Source of the DNA: Chiloscyllium plagiosum
Lineage: Eukaryota
DNA: 64,000 nt
Direction: 5' to 3'
Assembly: GCF_004010195.1 (NCBI RefSeq)
Contig: NC_057751.1
Span: forward strand, 7,716,137-7,780,136
Shown: positions 16,870-51,955 of the stretch, piece after piece
How positions within the stretch are numbered: the stretch's first letter is position 1
Layout: each line of letters opens with the position of its first letter
Position numbers and translations under genes: made by a program
The notes under the pieces: model-generated
What the model was told of the DNA's origin: nothing
The model's input: only the letters and a program-made list of their open reading frames with translations
The model's database searches: none

Positions 16870-17300
16870 GGGATTGAGAGGGGAAAGATTTAAAAGGGAC
16901 CCAAGGGGCAACTTTTTCATGCAGAGGGTGGTGCGTGTCTGGAATGAGCTGCCACAGGAATTGGTGGAGGCTGGTACAATTACAATATTTAAAAGGCACC
17001 TGAATGAGTTTGGAGAAGATTCGTAGCTTAGGTTGAGGTTCTGGATTTAAGTTTGCTCGTTGAGCTGGAAGGTTAGTTTTCAGACGTTTCATCACTGTAC
17101 TAGGCATGGAGACGAAATGTCTGAATATGAACCTTCCAGCTCAGTGAGCGAACTTAATCCAGCATCTGAATGAATAAGAAGGGTTTAGAGGGATATGGAC
17201 CAAATGCTGGCAAATGGGACTTGATTAATTTGAGGTATCTGGTCGGCATGACGAATTGGACCAAAGGGTCTGTTTCCGCGCAGTTCGTTTTTCTGACTCT
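16870..17300 (+). mobile_element. CR1 3' end interrupted by a palindromic insert
   Basis: GNFFMQRVVRVWNELP-type sequence then 3' UTR. Confidence 0.8.
17008..17161. mobile_element. Palindromic insert, probably PLE-tail derived (family D)
   Basis: taagtttgctcgttgagctggaaggttagttttcagacgtttc is mirrored by gaaatgtctgaatatgaaccttccagctcagtgagcgaactta. Confidence 0.6.
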
Positions 17301-19219: not shown

Positions 19220-20040
19220 AACTAGGCCAATGAGCTGACAGATGTAGTTTGATTTGGATGAATGCATTTTCGTAATACAAATAAGAGCAGAACTTGTACA
19301 ATTAATGGTTGGACCCTTGGAGTCTTGTCGAACAGAGAGACCTCAGGATTCAGGTACATAATTCTTTGCAATGTGCATCACAGATAGAAAGGGTGGTTAA
19401 GAAGGCATTTAGCACGCTTACCTTAATTCCTTAGACCTTTGAGTATCAGAGTTTGGACATCTTGTTGAGGTTATACAGGATATTTGTAAGGTCTCTTCTG
19501 GAGTACTGTGTGCAGTTCTGGTCACCTTGTTACAGGAAGGATATTATTAGACTAGAGAAGGTTCAGAAAAGATTTACCAGGATGTTGCCAGGAATGGAAG
19601 GTTTGAGATATAAAAATAGACTGGAAAGACTGTGACTTTTCTCATTGGAGCACAGGAGGTTGAGGGCTGACCTTACTGAGGTTTAGAAAATCAACAGGGG
19701 TGTACATAATATGAGTGACAAGGGTGTATTCCTTAGCATGGGCGAGTTCAAAACCAGGGGGCATATTTTTAAGATGAGAGAAGAAAGATTTAAATAGGAC
19801 ATTTAGTTTAGGGACAACTTTTTTCACACAGATAGCGTCTTGTGTGTGGAATGAACTTCCAGAGGAAGTGGTGGATGTGGGCACAGTTATGATGTTTAGA
19901 AGACATTTAGTTGAGTACATGAACAGGAAAGGTTTGGAGGGACATGGGCCAAGTGTAGGCTGGTAAGACTAGTTTAGTTTGGGATGATGGTCGTCACGGA
20001 CTGGTTGGACCGAGGGTCTGTTTCTGTGCTGTATGACTCA
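19220..20040 (+). mobile_element. CR1 3' fragment
   Basis: LEYCVQFWSPCYRKDI..LEKVQKRFTRMLPG. Confidence 0.9.
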
Positions 20041-20050
20041 ATAAATGGAA

Positions 20051-20222
20051 AGTTAAAAATCACACAACACCAGGTTATAGTCCAACAGGTTTACTTGGAA
20101 GCACTTGCTTTCAGCAGCGCTCCAAAAGGTAGTGCTTCCAAATAAACCTGGTGGACTATAATCTGGTGTTGTGTTATTTTTAACTTTGTACACCCCAGTC
20201 CAACGCCGACGTCTCCAAATCA
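20051..20222. mobile_element. Palindromic PLE-tail mini-element (family A)
   Basis: Two inverted ~60-bp arms; perfect 13-bp TSD TCAATAAATGGAA at 20038-20050 and 20223-20235. Confidence 0.8.
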
Positions 20223-21977
20223 TCAATAAATGGAAGCTTCAATTTGATGACCCTTCCATTCCTGCTGATTACATTCTTAAAGTGTGCTATGAGCTCACTC
20301 CTTACTTCTTGGACAAACGTACACCATTTGCCTGATATACCCTCTATTTTCCCATTTCAATTTCTATTGGCATTCCCTCTTTGCCTGTGCAAACAACTCA
20401 CATAGTTAATCGATTTATTTCAGGATTTTGAATACTTCATTTGGTAGAATAAAAAAAAGTCCTCCTTTTCTAAGGGGGGAATCAAATTCTTCAACCTCTC
20501 ATGAAAATCTAAGATTCCCAGGATCTGGTGGTGCATATCTTTTCAATTTTTGTTGCATCCAAAGTTATTGCTTCCTATCATGAATCTGCCAGAATCCCAC
20601 CAGTGAATTAAACACTCACGTTTGCAACAGGGTCTTCAAAGCTGGTGGCAGTGAATTCTCTCGCTTTTCGTTATAAGAACAGGAGTAAGCCATTTAGCCC
20701 CTCGAGCATGGTTGATCAGTGGCCTCATCCCGTAGGTCTGTCTTTGGACCATGTCCCTTAACAGCTTTGCTCAACCATAAATTATCAACCTCAGATTGAA
20801 AATTAACAACTGAGATACTGTTTGGCGTGCAGGAAATTATGGTAAATAATGAACACACATGACCTCACTCATGGCACTGAGGTTGCAAGGAGACCATTTC
20901 ATTCCAAGTCATGTAGTTTGAGGAATAGCTATTGATCAGGATTCCTAATGGGATTGCCAAGACCTGACATGAAACAATGCCAAGAGACATTTCCCATAGA
21001 CCTCAGAGGGCACAGGAATAGCATCTTATGCCAACTCCAGTTGGTAATATAACCAATGTAAATGCAATGTATTTTTGTGTTCTCTACACTCCCTGGATAC
21101 TCGTTTTGTGAAAATCTCAAGACCCATTGCTGGTCTTCAGCTCGATTACCCATACCTTCAGAGGTGTGGAACTCTGAAACTCCTTCCTTGGTCGTTCAAC
21201 TTTGAAGGCTTTTACAAAATCAGAAGAGAATCCAGACTTGCTCTTGTTCAGAGCCTTGGGATATTGTTACTCTAAAGGCACTTGATTAATCAAGTTGGCA
21301 GAATCTGTGCCCACCTTATCTCCAAGCTTGTCTGCAATGCATTTTTAGCTCACACTTTGAAGTCAAACAGATGGGATATTCTTTGTGCAGCCATTCAGAT
21401 GCATGTACTGGTTGATAATCACGCTGCAATTTTCATTAGATCTGACACCAAAAAAATAAATCTTTTATATTTGTGACATACTCCAGAAAATACAACACTG
21501 TCCAAGAAAAGATTCTAACCTGTTTTGCATCCATGCATTGCCAATTTCCCTCCTGCATTCTGGTAGTGGGACAACATAACAATGGTTCAGTGTGGGTGGA
21601 CTTCTTTGTCAATGATGTCAATGTTACGCAAAAGCTCAGCAGGTCTGGCAGTATCTGTGGAGAGAAAACAGAGTTAATGTTGAGGGCCCAGTGACCATTC
21701 TAAATAAGATTGAGCTGTTTTCCAGCAACTTCTCATGTTATATCAAGTCTTTAATTGGTATTAAATTCACTCTGCACCAAGGGCAACCATCAGAGATATA
21801 AATCCTGATCGATTTTCCAACAGCTAACTTATAGATACAATTCCACAAAACCGTGAGTAACTAACTTAGCACAATGTGGGCAAAGTACACAAGATTTTTC
21901 ATGTCAGTCTGGCTGATGTCTACACTGGTCAGATCATTTATCATCTGGAATCTTCTGATTTTCATAACTCATTGCTT

Positions 21978-22225
21978 CAGATGTGGAGGAGCCAGTGTTG
22001 GACTAGGCTCGATGAAGTTAAAAATCACATAACACCAGGTTATAGTCCAACAGGTTTATTTGGAAGCACTAGCTTTTGAAGCGCTGCTCTTTTATCAGAT
22101 ATCTGTGAAGCAAGATCATAAGACACAGAATTTATAGCAAAAGGTTACAGTGACATGCAACTGAAATGATATATTGAACAGCAACCAGGTTTGTTCAATA
22201 TATCGTTTCAGAAACATGACACTGT
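21978..22225 (-). mobile_element. PLE tail (family A) with degenerate hammerhead and short terminal inversion
   Basis: Reverse of the 100-310 sequence; 22148-22180 is mirrored at 22192-22225. Confidence 0.7.
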
Positions 22226-33764: not shown

Positions 33765-34400
33765 CAAACAAGAACAGAAGTTGCTGGAAAAGGTCTGCAG
33801 CGTGTGTGAAGAGAAATCAGAGTTAACATTTCAGGTCTCCTCGGAACTGAAGGTAGCTCGGAAAATGTTGGTTTATATGCAGAAGGAAGGGTGGGGGAAG
33901 GTGGGGGGAAGGAGAAAATGATAAATGGGAATAGAACCCAAAGAGAGAGAAGAACAGTTGGAGAGACAAAAGAGTGTGAATAGCTGTAAAGGAGATCATT
34001 AGTGGCGAGCAATAGGTAAAGTTAAAATCACACAACACCAGATTATAGACCAACAGGTTTAGTTGGAAGCACTAGCTTTCAAAGCATCACTCCCTCATCA
34101 GGTGGTTGTCATCTGATGAAGGAGCAGCGCTCCGAAAGCTAGTACTTCCAAATAAACATGTTGAACTATAACCTGGTGTTGTCTGATTTTTAACTTTGTA
34201 CACTCCAGTCCAACCCCGGCACTTCCAAGTCATAATGATAGGTAGTGTGTAATGGCAGATGATGTGATAACAAGGCCTGAGGTGTGGGGTAGGGGGCTAG
34301 GACATGGGAGAATTCAGGCCCTAAAATTATTGAACTTGATATTGATTCCAGGGGGGCTACGGGCTCCCGAAGCAAAGAATAACACCTCATTTTCCGTTTG
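33765..34400 (-). mobile_element. PLE-related tail (family C) interrupted by a family A palindrome
   Basis: cagaagttgctggaaaag...gagttaacatttcagg resembles the reverse of 46150-46285. Confidence 0.55.
34019..34237. mobile_element. Palindromic PLE-tail mini-element with hammerheads on both strands
   Basis: Degenerate minus core at ~34070-34104 and intact plus core at 34110-34143; flanked by ATAGGTA at 34012-34018 and 34238-34244. Confidence 0.8.
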
Positions 34401-35145
34401 GGGTAAAGAGAAAAGGGAACTAATGTTTCACACTCCAGGTGAATCAGGGTCGATTCCAGATAAAGGGCATTGAAAATCTGAATCATGTCACCTTATAAAA
34501 ACTTTTGAGAGTGTGGGGGTGTGGTCTAGTGGACAATCTCAAATTAAAAGATTGGTATAGGTTTTTGTTTGGCGAGGTTATTCAAAGTTACGAAGCCAAG
34601 GTGGGTTGACGATGATGTGGGACAGATCGTCTGCAATCTGAATAATCGAAGAAGTTTGGTGGGACTCAACCGCTTCTTTCTGCACCTGTCCACAGGTATG
34701 GGTGGGTTCCGCCTCGCCTGACTGATCTGCTAGCCTGAGGTGATCAATGTCGGAAAGTATGGCACTGGGAAAGCACAGTAGGTCAGGCAGCATCCGAGGA
34801 GCAGGAGAGTCCATGTTTCAGGCATAAGCCATCAATACCACTGCAGGAAATTCCAGAACAGCCACCTCAAAAACACCAGCAACGGTTCTCCTTCAAGATC
34901 TTCAGCTCCACACTTGCAGCAATGCGCCGGCACCTAACCTCTCTACAGTCAGCCCGGCCTCAGCTGAGGGCCACACTCTCTCAGAATTGCAAAGGACCCC
35001 TTCTGTACTACATCCTCAGGAGAATTCATACTCTCAACAAACAGTATTTCAACTCCATCTCAAACATCAAAAACTGTAGGTACAACAAACTTTTATCTAC
35101 CCACCTCCATAACCAGCGCTCCTCAAACATTCCAGAAGATTCCCC

Positions 35146-35522
35146 NNNNNNNNNNNNNNNNNNNNNNNNNNNNNNNNNNNNNNNNNNNNNNNNNNNNNNN
35201 NNNNNNNNNNNNNNNNNNNNNNNNNNNNNNNNNNNNNNNNNNNNNNNNNNNNNNNNNNNNNNNNNNNNNNNNNNNNNNNNNNNNNNNNNNNNNNNNNNNN
35301 NNNNNNNNNNNNNNNNNNNNNNNNNNNNNNNNNNNNNNNNNNNNNNNNNNNNNNNNNNNNNNNNNNNNNNNNNNNNNNNNNNNNNNNNNNNNNNNNNNNN
35401 NNNNNNNNNNNNNNNNNNNNNNNNNNNNNNNNNNNNNNNNNNNNNNNNNNNNNNNNNNNNNNNNNNNNNNNNNNNNNNNNNNNNNNNNNNNNNNNNNNNN
35501 NNNNNNNNNNNNNNNNNNNNNN
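35146..35522. other. Assembly gap
   Basis: N run. Confidence 1.
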
Positions 35523-35690
35523 GTAGAGTGGGAGGGGGAGTTGAAATGTTGGGCCACTGGGCGATTTGGTTGATTGGTGCGGGTGTCTCGGAGATGTTCC
35601 CTAAAGCGCTCTGCTAGGAGGCGCCCAGTCTCCCCAATGTAGAGGAGACCGCATCGGGAGCAACGGATACAATAAATGATATTAGTGGAT
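35523..35690 (-). pseudogene. PLE GIY-YIG endonuclease fragment, inverted relative to the RT
   Basis: Translates STNIIYCIRCSRCGLLYIGETGRLLAERFREHLRDTRTNQPNRPVAQHFNSPSHS. Confidence 0.9.
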
Positions 35691-35708
35691 ACCTAACCCT
35701 AACCCCCC

Positions 35709-36982
35709 CATCACCAAACCATCATCTCCCCCCCCATACAGAACCTCATCACCTCCGGAGATCTCCCACCCACAGCTTCCAACCTCATAGTCCGGGAACC
35801 CCGCACTGCCCGGTTCTACCTCCTTCCCAAGATCCACAAGCCTGACCACCCTGGCCGACCCATTGTCTCAGCATGCTCCTGCCCCACTGAACTCATATCT
35901 ACCTACCTCGACACTGTCCTATCCCTCCTAGTCCAGGAACTCCCCACATACGTTCGAGACACCACCCATGCCCTCCACCTCCTCCAAGACCTCCGTTTCC
36001 CCGGCCCCCAACGTTTCATCTTCACTATGGATATCCCATCCCTCTACACCTCCATCCGCCATGAACAGGGCCTCCAAGCCCTCCATTTCTGCCTTTCCCG
36101 ACATCCCCAACAGTACCCTTCCACCGACACTCTCATTCGTTTGGCTGAACTGGTCCTCACCCTTTACAATTTCTCCTTCAAATCCTCCCACTTCCTCCAG
36201 ACCAAAGGGGTAGCCATGGGCACCTGTATGGGCCCCAGCTATGCCTGTCTCTTTGTTGGCTACGTAGAACAGTCGATCTTCCGTAATTACACCAGCACCA
36301 CTCCCCACCTTTTCCTCCGCTACATCGATGACTGCATTGGTGCCATCTCGTGCTCTCGCGAGGAGGTTGAGCAATTCATCAACTTCACCAACACATTCCA
36401 GCCTGACCTCAAATTTACCTGGACCATCTCTGACACCTCCCTCCCCTTCCTGGACCTCTCCACCTCCATTAATGACGACTGACCTGATACCGACATTTTT
36501 TACAAACCCACCGACTCCCACAGCTACCTGGATTACACCTCTTCCCACCCTACCTCTTGCAAAAATGCCATCCCGTATTCCCAATTCCTCCGCCGGATCT
36601 GCTCCCAGGAGGACCAGTTCCACCACAGAACACACCAGATGGCCTCCTTCTTTAGAGACCACAATTTCCCTTCCCTCATGGTTAAAGATGCCCTCCAACG
36701 CATCTCATCTACATCCCGCACCTCTACCCTCAGACTCCACCCCTCCAACCATAACAAGGACAGAACGCCCATGGTGCTCACCTTCCACCCTACCAACCTT
36801 CGCATAAACCAAATCAGCCGCCGACATTTCCGTCACATCCAAACAGACCCCACCACCAGGGATATATTTCCCTCCCCACCCCTTTCCGCCTTCCGCAAAG
36901 ACCGTTCCCTCCGTGACTACCTGGTCAGGTCCACGCCCCCCCTACAACCCACCCTCCCATCCTGGCACCTTCTCCTGCCACC
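35709..36982 (+). pseudogene. Penelope-type reverse transcriptase with one in-frame TGA
   Basis: FYLLPKIHKP..GRPIVS, MDIPSLYT, GVAMGT.MGPSYA, FLRYIDD, PFLDL, YKPTDSHSYL in one frame; TGA at 36480-36482. Confidence 0.93.
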
Positions 36983-37333
36983 NNNNNNNNNNNNNNNNNN
37001 NNNNNNNNNNNNNNNNNNNNNNNNNNNNNNNNNNNNNNNNNNNNNNNNNNNNNNNNNNNNNNNNNNNNNNNNNNNNNNNNNNNNNNNNNNNNNNNNNNNN
37101 NNNNNNNNNNNNNNNNNNNNNNNNNNNNNNNNNNNNNNNNNNNNNNNNNNNNNNNNNNNNNNNNNNNNNNNNNNNNNNNNNNNNNNNNNNNNNNNNNNNN
37201 NNNNNNNNNNNNNNNNNNNNNNNNNNNNNNNNNNNNNNNNNNNNNNNNNNNNNNNNNNNNNNNNNNNNNNNNNNNNNNNNNNNNNNNNNNNNNNNNNNNN
37301 NNNNNNNNNNNNNNNNNNNNNNNNNNNNNNNNN
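36983..37333. other. Assembly gap
   Basis: N run. Confidence 1.
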
Positions 37334-37425
37334 AATCTCCAGCAACTGCAGTACTCTATGCTACTTTCTCCCCACCCCCACCCTCCTCTAGCTTATCTCT
37401 CCACACTTCAGGCTCTCTTCCTGTA

Positions 37426-37458
37426 TTCCTGATGAAGGGCTTTTGCCCGAAACATCGA
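37426..37458 (+). ncRNA. Minimal hammerhead motif (family B)
   Basis: ttc-CTGATGA-agggcttttgccc-GAA-ACAT-C-ga; stem III palindrome ACGT mutated to ACAT. Confidence 0.65.
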
Positions 37459-38889
37459 TTTTACTGCTCGTCGGATGCTGCCTGAACTGCTGTGCTCTTC
37501 CAGCACCACTAATCCAGAACCCCTTTTTTACATTGACGAACCTACCTTCCCTGTGTCTTTGCGACTGAAAAAGGGCAGCTGCAAGGCAGGGATTACACAG
37601 CAGATCCCACGATAACTGAGCTCATCTAACTTGGCAGCGGTGACGGGAAAGTCAAAGTTAACAACCCAAAGCATTGTCAACATGAGAGATGGAATTCGTC
37701 AGACAGTCTTTGCAACACAATGTGCAAATTAACCATAAACTTCGAGCTTTTCAGCATTCCGCACTACTGCGCAAAGTGAAGCTTTCACCTTCAATCCCCA
37801 AGGAGCATTATGTGAGGAACAGAAAAGAGGGACAGCTGTTACTCGAGATCAAACCCTGCACAAAGGAAGGGTGTGCAAACAAGCAACCGTCCACATAAAG
37901 ACACACACACAAACCCGCAGAAAATACTCGAACACACACACACACATGCAAGCACATGGACAGAAATGCAGTGACTTAGCCATGAAACAGACTCCATGCA
38001 GGGTACAAGAGACGCATATATCCAATCCCATGCTTTTGGGGGTATGCACAAAAACATGGTGCGCACACAACACATGCAGAATCAAAGACACACACCCACA
38101 CACACACAGATGTATAAACTGACTGAGAACACATTTGGGGGAGAGAATTTGCACTGTATATTGATAGCTGCTAATGAATTGCTTCTCCATTAGATTTGCA
38201 TGTAAGTTGCATCCAAGTGCAACATGGTAAAGTGGCTTTGTTGGGGGCTGGGAGGATGGCGTCATGGAGGTGGGGGTGGAGAGAGACTGCTCACACAGTC
38301 TTCTGTTTCTGAGCAAACCTTCCTGCTCACAGAAACAGCATCCTCAGATAGACAAGGCTCAGGACAACCAAAACGATTGTGCCCCAAACTCCGAACATCT
38401 GCATTTTCGGCAGATTAAATGACTCAATCTGGAGGCTAAAAGGAGACATCACCAAACGCAAGCAAAACAGGAAAGAAGGACTGTCTTGATGGAATGACAC
38501 ATCCATCGTTGACAGGAGATGCTGTGAGCATGATATTGCTGTGGTGTGCAGGCACACACACTGATCGGAATTCAAACAGGGTCAGGCAAACTAACCTGGC
38601 TCTCAGATACCCCCTTTGAAAGCAACTGCGTTATGCAGAGTACCCTGTTTCATCTCCTCTTTTCCCATCATCACAGGGAGATGAATGGCGATGGAGTTAA
38701 TTTTCCTCTGGTGTTGATTACTCTGTCAGACTTCACACTGCTCCACAGGGCATGACAACTTGCATTCGTATAGCAACCTCGACTGACACACAGAGATATC
38801 CCAAGATTCATCCGGAGGGTGATGAATCAGACAAGATCGAACAACGAGGCATAACAAGAGGTAGTGGGACTCCATTTAGACTTCTCGCT

Positions 38890-49120: not shown

Positions 49121-49398
49121 ATATTATTCTCCGCCCCCCCCAACACCATGCAGGGATCTGAACTCACACCTCATGACTATTAGCTGAATAACAAGTGCCC
49201 CATGAGGAGATAACTCTCAGGATTGGCAACAAAATTTGCTCAACTCAAACAACGACAGAAAAAGTTGTAATTTCCTTTTTACTGCCTCTTTGCAACAAAC
49301 CCATAAACCCTCGTGTGGTAATCAACACTGGGGAGAAAACAGTTTAAACCCATTAACAGACCTTTCAGAATGGAAAGATTAAGAGCATTCACAAACTT

Positions 49399-49620
49399 GG
49401 ACATCAGAATGGAGAGAGTGTGGTGCTGGAAAAGCACAGCTGGTCAGGCAGCATCCGAGGAGCAGGAGAATCGAAATTTTGGGCATAAGCCCTTCATCAG
49501 GAATGAGGATGCACAAAACGTCACTTTCCCTGCTCCTCGGATGCTGCATGACCTGCTGTGCTTTTCCAGCACCACACTCTCGACTCTGATGTCCAGCATT
49601 TGCAGTCCTCACTTTCTCCC
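49399..49620. mobile_element. Palindromic PLE-tail mini-element (family B)
   Basis: gagagtgtggtgctggaaaagcacagc..gcatccgaggagcagg is mirrored by cctgctcctcggatgc..gctgtgcttttccagcaccacactctc; degenerate minus hammerhead at 49470-49503. Confidence 0.78.
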
Positions 49621-50400: not shown

Positions 50401-51955
50401 TGATTTGGAGATGCTGGTGTTGGACTGGGGCAGACAAAGCTGAAAATCATACAATACCAGGTTATAATCCAACAGGTTTATTTGGAAACACTAGCTTTCG
50501 GAGCGCTGCTCCTTCATCAGGTGGTTGTGCAGCAGAACCATACGATGTTGGTAGTGGTGGTATCCATGTCAACACGCGAGTCTGTCTCCTGAGGAGGTCA
50601 TTCGCTCACAGCGAGAAACTGTAATGATGTCCTCAGGGAGAAAGACATGAGCTGCAACCGATAGGGTACTCTTCAATGTCCAGTACTTGCTGGGAGCTGA
50701 AAAACTATGCCATGTTTGTCGCAGCCTTCAGCACATTATCAATAAGGATGAGCACCTCGCCAAGACCTTCACCACGCCTGCACTTCTTGCCTTTAAACAG
50801 CCACCAAACCTCAAACAGATCATTGTTCACAGCAAACCGCCTGACACAACCCTGTCACGGCAGAGTGTTGACACGGACACCACCATTACACGTGGGGATA
50901 CCACCCACCATGCACGCAACAGGTACTCATGTGACTCGGCAAACATGGTCTCTCTCATACGCTGCAGGCAAGGATGCCCTGAGGCCCTGGTACATTGGCA
51001 AGACCAAAAAGAGACTATGGCAACGGATGAATGGACAACGCACAACAATCAATAGCCAGGAGTGTTCCCTCCCAATTGGAGAACACTTCAGTGGTCTGGG
51101 ACATTCGGCCTTGGACCTTCGGGTGACCATCCTCCAAGGCGGACTCTGGGACAAGCAACAAAGCAAAATGGCTGAGCAGAAGCTGATAGCCAAGTTCCAT
51201 ACCCATGGGGATGGTATCAACTGGGACCTTGGGTTCATGTCACAATACAGGTGACTCCACTGCACTATATGCTCCTTCACATACTCGTGCACACAATATA
51301 CATACATACACACGCACACACACCCAGACCCACACGGTGACGCAGATCATCTCTCATACACAAGGTCTCTCTGATAGGCTCACACATACTCCCTCCACAC
51401 TCACACCCTCTCACAGATTTATTCCCCATTACACACATCACATACACAGACACACACACTCACAATCACACCCGCACACCCACTCAGTCTCCCCTGCACT
51501 GACACACATCTAAGTTTATGGGGTGAATTTGTACTTGCAGAATTACATTTATTTTGCTCAAAAACTGCAGAAACTCATGTAAGATTTTGCAAAACCCACT
51601 TTTTAGAAATAGAATCAGTCTGACCTAACATTGGGACCCAGACAGACTTTAACCTCACACCTTTAATGCATTATCTGAGCTGAGCTGTTCAAGCTATCTT
51701 GAGAATGTAACTTTACAAATGTTCTGGATTTACTTATGAAGGAACATAAACTAACATGATCATTCTAAAAGATGAAAGACTTAAGCTAAATTTGTTTAAC
51801 ATTACATCCCACGACACTGCAATCCTGTTGCTATAAATTCTGTGTCTTATGATCATGCTTCACAGATATCTGATGAAAGAGCAGCGCTCCAAAAGCTAGT
51901 GCTTCCAAATAAACCTGCTGGACTATAACCTGGTGTTGTGCAATTTTTAACTTGA
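50401..51955 (+). mobile_element. 5'-truncated Penelope element (family A) with inverted 5' tail
   Basis: Inverted tail 50401-50525; GIY-YIG region WYIGKTK..RMNG..HF..EQKLIAKF..GIN at ~50930-51254; CA-rich UTR; TSD tctc(t/a)gtaaact at 50389-50400 and 51956-51967. Confidence 0.9.
50489..50523 (-). ncRNA. Intact minimal hammerhead motif (family A)
   Basis: Reverse complement cac-CTGATGA-a-ggagc-agc-gctcc-GAA-AGCT-A-gtg: stems I and II perfect, palindromic stem III. Confidence 0.75.

Follow-up and report, generated by a model that had tools for sequence, protein, structure and literature searches.

A 172-bp head-to-head insert in Chiloscyllium plagiosum, probably an old truncated insertion of a Penelope-like element

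Locus and structure of the insert

The window, which is the whole stretch of DNA that was analysed, comprised 64,000 nt of Chiloscyllium plagiosum (assembly GCF_004010195.1, contig NC_057751.1, positions 7,716,137 to 7,780,136 of the forward strand). It was repeat-dense with 728 N in two gaps, and 10 of its 59 listed ORFs scanned against Pfam for a host gene showed none above the cut-off. An insert of 172 bp was located at 20051-20222 behind the 3' end of a LINE, which we take to be of CR1 type, and consisted of two pieces of the terminus of a Penelope-like element (PLE) designated family A. The features of the locus are as follows.

19225-20039, plus strand: 3' end of the older CR1-type LINE against which the PLE inserted (context)
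20038-20050, plus strand: left target site duplication (TSD), TCAATAAATGGAA; shared over its first 2 nt with the 3' terminus of that LINE and matching the element end over its last 2
20051-20112, minus strand: tail-less arm of 62 nt, an antisense end of the family A pLTR in which GAAA was copied and stem II was not
20113-20187, plus strand: pLTR part of the tailed arm, beginning 2 nt inside the 5' strand of stem II, without CTGATGA and with GAAA changed to AAAA
20188-20222, plus strand: PLE tail of 35 nt, on the right arm only
20223-20235, plus strand: right TSD, TCAATAAATGGAA, followed by unique flank

The original prediction of a 172-bp insert between 13-bp repeats was exact, as the same direct repeat was found on both sides at 20038-20050 and 20223-20235. 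The prediction of two head-to-head family A termini stood with regard to the inverted pair and was corrected with regard to its symmetry: the left arm of 62 nt had no tail and stopped, on its way in from the tail-less end, at the base of hammerhead stem II; only the right arm of 110 nt (20113-20222) carried a tail of 35-37 nt. The inverted repeat itself covered 20049-20111 and 20125-20187 (63 nt, 90% complementary, 13-nt spacing). The predicted RNA fold of the insert had an energy of -89.5 kcal/mol with a z-score of -14.7, and 0 of 200 shuffles were as good.

The null frequency of an exact 13-bp repeat at such ends was 1 in 20000 random position pairs with a slack of ±3 nt and 1 in 2000 with a wider slack. 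The edges of the TSD are uncertain by 2 nt per side, because its first TC are also the last bases of the LINE and its last AA fit the element end. No empty site of the locus was seen among the best 15 of 417 contig joints from three species, so the TSD is read from the direct repeat. Overall, it was confirmed that the insert consists of two head-to-head pieces of one PLE end.

Two other accounts of the insert were rejected. An assembly artefact was ruled out because contigs of three species carry the tail-flank junction and the arms are 10% diverged. A MITE with terminal inverted repeats was ruled out, since the repeat ends 35 nt before the right end and is itself the PLE end.

Hammerhead region

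The arms joined at 20112/20113, which falls within hammerhead stem II as had been predicted, and the junction was the join expected from stem II self-complementarity minus 2 nt. Because the join lies inside stem II, the CTGATGA half of the core is gone from both arms (the GAAA of the right arm also reads AAAA) and the insert is not a ribozyme; ribozyme function at this locus was ruled out on the absence of CTGATGA from both arms. Where family A copies were intact, they had CTGATGA, GAAA, a 5-bp stem II and a palindromic GC, and a pattern search of the window placed the core of this predicted motif at 189, 34101, 34113 and 50520, all within family A. Rfam produced no matches at gathering score over the whole window, with no hammerhead, and five sub-threshold matches on 34000-34300, the hammerhead being among none of these.

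Since both arms pass through the predicted cleavage site, we infer that the RNA template of the insertion was uncleaved, which fits the part of PMC11167929 on template use. A template cut at the ribozyme site was ruled out, as the predicted site is crossed by both arms.

Other fold-backs and PLE copies in the window

Fold-backs of the same kind had been predicted at 34019, 49399 and 17008, and arm-to-arm alignment agreed at each of the three, with the second starting at 49398. Together with a longer one at 50401 that had not been predicted, these are as follows.

34019-34232, unstranded: second family A fold-back of ~214 bp, with a junction that differs from that at 20038 and a 7-bp duplicated core only
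50401-51953, unstranded: third family A fold-back of 1553 bp, with a 12-bp duplication containing one mismatch (null 1/5000)
49398-49620, unstranded: family B fold-back, the tail-less arm running through the core and the tailed arm beginning in the stem II loop
17008-17162, unstranded: family C fold-back inside a LINE taken to be CR1-type, with the longer (tailed) arm on the left and an 11-bp duplication containing one mismatch

A tail-less arm paired with a tailed arm was found in five of the five fold-backs analysed. The TSD was clear in two of the four short ones, 20038 and 17008 (null for the latter duplication, 7/5000), and was restricted to the 7-bp core at 34019; a duplication was looked for at the ends of the 49398 fold-back and none was found. 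Family C was presumed to be a PLE end in view of its architecture, and the position of its hammerhead is likewise presumed. The 34019 fold-back kept both cores, its tail-less arm reaching 8 nt upstream of CTGATGA and its tailed arm starting 3 nt upstream. Both breakpoints of the four short fold-backs (17008-17162, 20051-20222, 34019-34232 and 49398-49620) lay in or within ~10 nt of the hammerhead region, a raw observation in which short arms are harder to detect. No two of the three family A fold-backs (172, ~214 and 1553 bp) had the same junction.

The fold-back at 50401-51953 combined a ~1.4-kb tail-less arm on the plus strand, which contained a decayed reverse transcriptase (RT) thumb, linker and putative endonuclease region, with a ~145-nt tailed arm on the minus strand that belonged to another subfamily. 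The two arms differed at five of the five sites that separate the two subfamilies, the long arm matching the copy at 21980-22225 (92% over 143 nt) and the short arm matching the 34019 type. Its centre was a patchwork junction with two short inverted pieces taken from inside the long arm (50551-50575 from 50865-50889 and 50580-50602 from 50623-50646).

Further PLE copies were observed in the window. A gapped family B complex at 34743-37509 started with an inverted end and contained in order a sense piece resembling the N-terminus of the ORF, an antisense GIY-YIG piece (35523-35692, Pfam GIY-YIG E 3.3e-6) and a sense RT (RVT_1 E 1.7e-7), with ~2 telomere-like TAACCC units at its inversion junction near 35693-35705; it was left out of the fold-back count because its parts may be separate events. 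The copy at 21980-22225 was a solo tailed family A copy on the minus strand whose 5' end was a local palindrome of ~80 bp (22147-22225) that stopped short of the pLTR, and a TSD of this copy was looked for and not found. Finally, positions 1-308 held a tailed copy of another family A subfamily, cut by the start of the window, with a 2-nt insertion after GAAAGCTAG and a different stem II.

Parent element

The family A end was colinear with a decayed ORF at 50628-51254, which matches protein P0007. This protein contained RVT_1 (E 5e-9), a DKG motif and a CX4CxxC linker, and was aligned to the C-terminal frame of the window at E 5e-41. A 134-residue frame of the 1.4-kb arm had 18 shark protein hits among 95 candidates with 47-78% identity, and the named hits were from Chiloscyllium, Hemiscyllium and Heptranchias. 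Overall, family A showed a PLE-type RT parent, head-to-head pLTRs, a one-sided tail, a short TSD and a predicted minimal hammerhead.

The CX2-5CxxC motif of the linker between RT and endonuclease was present in P0001, P0004 and P0007 and partly deleted in the window copy; passages of PMC8557442 give this motif as a mark of Neptune and Nematis. Judged from these sequence features, the parent of the insert looks like a Neptune-type PLE, Neptune being preferred over Nematis because the host is a vertebrate. Pfam GIY-YIG had no match to the family A fragments or to P0007 and the endonuclease motifs were visible there by eye, so the endonuclease assignment is by eye only. In addition, the family consensus of the tail (20204-20222, from loose ends of DNA run X17) terminated at ATG, and the tail may thus be the stretch just before the start codon of the element.

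Junctions in contigs of three species

Public contigs of organisms A, B and C (DNA runs X2, X11 and X17, respectively) were aligned to 19950-20549 at 85% likeness, which gave 50,537 contigs for X2, 68,163 for X11 and at least 66,264 for X17. X2 may derive from the very sample behind the window. Summed contig depth, which is not a copy number, was 10^6-10^7 on the arms. At 20106 it was 344,962, 457,596 and 288,654 for X2, X11 and X17, and at 20112 only 550, 218 and 236, so that no more than 0.16% of the depth was left over a distance of 6 nt, a fall of 600-fold or more across the junction in all three species. With a unique-flank depth of 10.1, 24.5 and 11.9, the junction could at face value accommodate about 54, 9 and 20 copy-equivalents.

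The best 15 of 417 joints all had different end pairs with 1-5 contigs each; 11 of them ran from left arm to right arm (1-3 contigs per run), three were strand changes and one lay in the flank. Contigs that extended beyond 20112 to take in stem II and the core numbered 301 in X2 and at least 311 in X17, and those with the CTGATGA core before 20113 numbered 538 in X2 and at least 537 in X17. One X2 contig spanned a near-coincident centre elsewhere (20053-20149, 13 other letters and one gap), and the near-identical joints 20111-20113 and 20112-20114 were present in X11 and X17. Joints clustered at 20176-20181 were left unused, since a private change of the reference at 20175 can clip alignments. 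Family contigs ended sharply at 20050-20052 (for example 431 and 391 in X2) and at 20223 (499 in X11); these sharp ends, the tail-less end and the tail end, are ~35 nt apart and both stand against AT-rich sequence.

The tail was joined to the unique right flank on contigs of A (one difference), B and C. The C contig covered 20182-20543 with 12 other letters, and the B contig covered 20214-20549 with 12 other letters and just 9 nt of the tail aligned. The flank was ~3.5% apart among the three species. As the tail-flank junction is found in all of them, the insertion is older than their split; no orthologous centre was found among the contigs listed.

A CR1-type 3' end was also found joined to a tail-less end of family A on four X11 contigs and at least three X17 contigs, with 6 nt less between the two than at 20044-20051; PLEs may insert repeatedly directly behind CR1 tails. 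Scans of viral_contigs and metagenome_contigs for exact patterns of the family end gave 0 stretches in each. Finally, RNA run X22, of which ~6% was covered, had 0 reads on the whole stretch.

Comparison with known systems

Head-to-head pLTRs with a one-sided tail are described as the general PLE architecture (PMC8557442, PMC8969392), and rotifer PLEs have an inverted pLTR, a one-sided tail of 30-40 bp and a TSD of 8-10 bp (PMC3846280, PMC8557442). Pen2 and Pen2a of Adineta vaga (PMC3846280; legend to Fig. 2 of PMC8557442) resemble the insert at 20038 in their inverted ends, one-sided tail, short TSD and heavy 5' truncation, but the latter is only 172 bp, has no ORF and is found in a shark, and TSDs in the window were 11-13 bp as compared to 8-10 bp. 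The pLTRs of metazoan PLEs are reported to carry opposite-strand minimal hammerheads 100-700 bp apart, most motifs probably coming from truncated PLEs (PMC4209133). The 34019 fold-back is such an opposite-strand pair and intact family A copies share the motif, whereas the 20038 copy, without CTGATGA on both arms, cannot form a ribozyme.

Biochemical sections of PMC11167929 on the anole Poseidon element PAc report that both strands were cut and extended in vitro on AT-rich targets, that uncleaved RNA was used, that two internal RT start sites bracket the tail and that the protein is a predicted dimer; these sections do not address inverted insertions. Likewise, the 3' ends of family A fell at two discrete positions ~35 nt apart, its targets were AT-rich and its arms cross the predicted cleavage site, although PAc belongs to the Poseidon clade and the parent of the insert has the Neptune/Nematis linker motif. 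Non-LTR retrozymes, as far as described in bioRxiv 10.64898/2026.07.22.740005, are head-to-tail tandem units with complete hammerheads. The insert is similarly small, non-coding and derived from a PLE pLTR, but as a single head-to-head unit without a type I hammerhead core it differs from retrozymes in both respects.

Origin and mechanism of the insert

Twin priming of L1 also produces an inverted 5' part with a TSD when two target nicks each prime a cDNA, both parts being copied from successive stretches of one RNA. Both arms at 20038, in contrast, copy the same 62 nt, so that two pLTR copies or two RNAs are needed. The insert is best read, with a probability of about 0.7, as one old and inactive insertion of a putatively endonuclease-bearing Neptune-type PLE, which represents the last ~110 nt of the element in the inverted-end-plus-tail form, was formed at this locus and does not propagate itself. 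Within this explanation, a mechanism with two nicks and two start sites is somewhat favoured. In AT-rich DNA the PLE protein would nick each of the two strands, with about 11-13 nt between the nicks. Both nicks would prime the copying of element RNA into cDNA, beginning at the tail end in one case and at the second start site ~35 nt upstream in the other. Both cDNAs would stop early, at 20038 by the GC-rich stem II hairpin, and their ends would be joined head to head, aided by stem II self-complementarity. Fill-in would then yield the target duplication, and the product would have no hammerhead core and encode nothing. Two primers account for the tail-less and tailed arms in five of the five fold-backs.

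The original prediction had left two readings open, extreme 5' truncation as a routine outcome of PLE integration, which the present results support, and a non-autonomous class of hairpin-RNA mini-retroelements mobilised in trans, which they speak against. The pattern named there as pointing to independent abortive insertions was largely observed, since breakpoints differed between copies. Such a mini-element, with this fixed junction and a transcript that PLE proteins would copy in trans, would gain from the stable predicted hairpin, the presence of both PLE ends and the near-coincident centres on a few contigs, and passages of the literature describe PLE ends that can mobilise other sequence in trans (PMC3846280) as well as non-autonomous PLE derivatives (PMC8557442; bioRxiv 10.64898/2026.07.22.740005). 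It is disfavoured by the collapse of depth at the junction in three DNA runs and by joints that were all different among the best 15 of 417; scarce junction and differing joints together indicate that no amplified family has the 20112/20113 junction. A core alignment of eight arms with 64 columns (column 1, a ragged edge, was set aside) showed no derived change shared by the left arms of 20051 and 34019 and none shared by their right arms, for the two short copies compared. The two arms of 20051 differed from each other at 7 of 64 columns, and unrelated older copies at 4-11 (seven older arms). The hammerhead core is also absent, and the insert is one head-to-head unit with no head-to-tail tandem as in retrozymes. 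A mini-element is thus very improbable, and if it exists its family would number tens of copies at most. Titles and abstracts in the literature searched, which left out most subscription papers as well as Repbase and Dfam, described neither a family of palindromic PLE mini-elements nor a model with two templates.

Two further accounts accept a truncated PLE and differ in how its short centre arose. Palindromes tend to lose their centres, and the insert could at first have been a longer fold-back like that at 34019, with both hammerheads intact, that later lost ~40 bp. The copy is old enough for this, with arms that differ at 7 of 64 columns and a tail-flank junction common to three species, and the core was kept at 34019 and in the short arm of 50401. 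Nevertheless, junctions in or near stem II were also found at 49398 and 17008 and much shorter arms occurred among the listed joints, so short centres need no second event, and none of the nine indel rows of the contig survey held an insertion behind 20112; a later deletion is therefore unlikely. Self-priming, by which the tail-end cDNA would fold back at stem II, copy itself and be cut or resolved at the tail-less site, is similarly doubtful. It resembles a proposal in PMC3846280, which however places the event on the antisense template, and palindromes at inverted junctions of rotifer PLEs are noted there; the tail has been ascribed to endonuclease resolution of an intermediate in a passage of PMC8557442. 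Small local fold-backs were present at 22147-22225 and 50580-50646, and folding back at stem II predicts the junction at 20038 save for 2 missing nt. Self-priming fits this one junction alone. It cannot explain 50401-51953, whose two arms belong to different subfamilies and have lengths that differ ~10-fold, the tail-less one being the longer, and the tail-less arms of 34019, 49398 and 50401 hold sequence missing from the tailed arm and thus do not come from fold-back copying of a single cDNA. Moreover, the tail-less end corresponds to an RT start site in vitro (PMC11167929, biochemical sections).

Priming of two cDNAs at two nicks leaves the number of templates to be considered. The mixed-subfamily arms of 50401-51953 suggest from their sequence two RNA templates, although this is a single locus and a chimeric donor would be equally able to produce it. 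More tentatively, and with the odds somewhat against it, PLE inverted insertions in general might be made by a protein dimer with two RNA templates, each nick priming its own cDNA and the hammerhead region serving as the usual stop.

Significance

The insert is a real feature with an ordinary explanation, since an inverted end, a one-sided tail and a target duplication are already published for PLEs. The locus itself is minor, a single decayed remnant of a repeat that is very abundant. PLE stubs of this kind are a risk for annotation, as they can be mistaken for MITEs, for microRNA hairpins (weak Rfam miRNA matches were seen) or for ribozyme elements. How PLEs build inverted insertions is described as undefined in a passage of PMC8557442. 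Short fold-backs hold both arms, the junction and the TSD within one read length, and counted in bulk they could separate the two-primer from the self-priming model. If a dimer with two templates is the true reading, the TSD-bounded fold-back at 50401-51953 would be its direct trace, and the very many stubs in sharks would be a natural data set for the integration step of PLEs.
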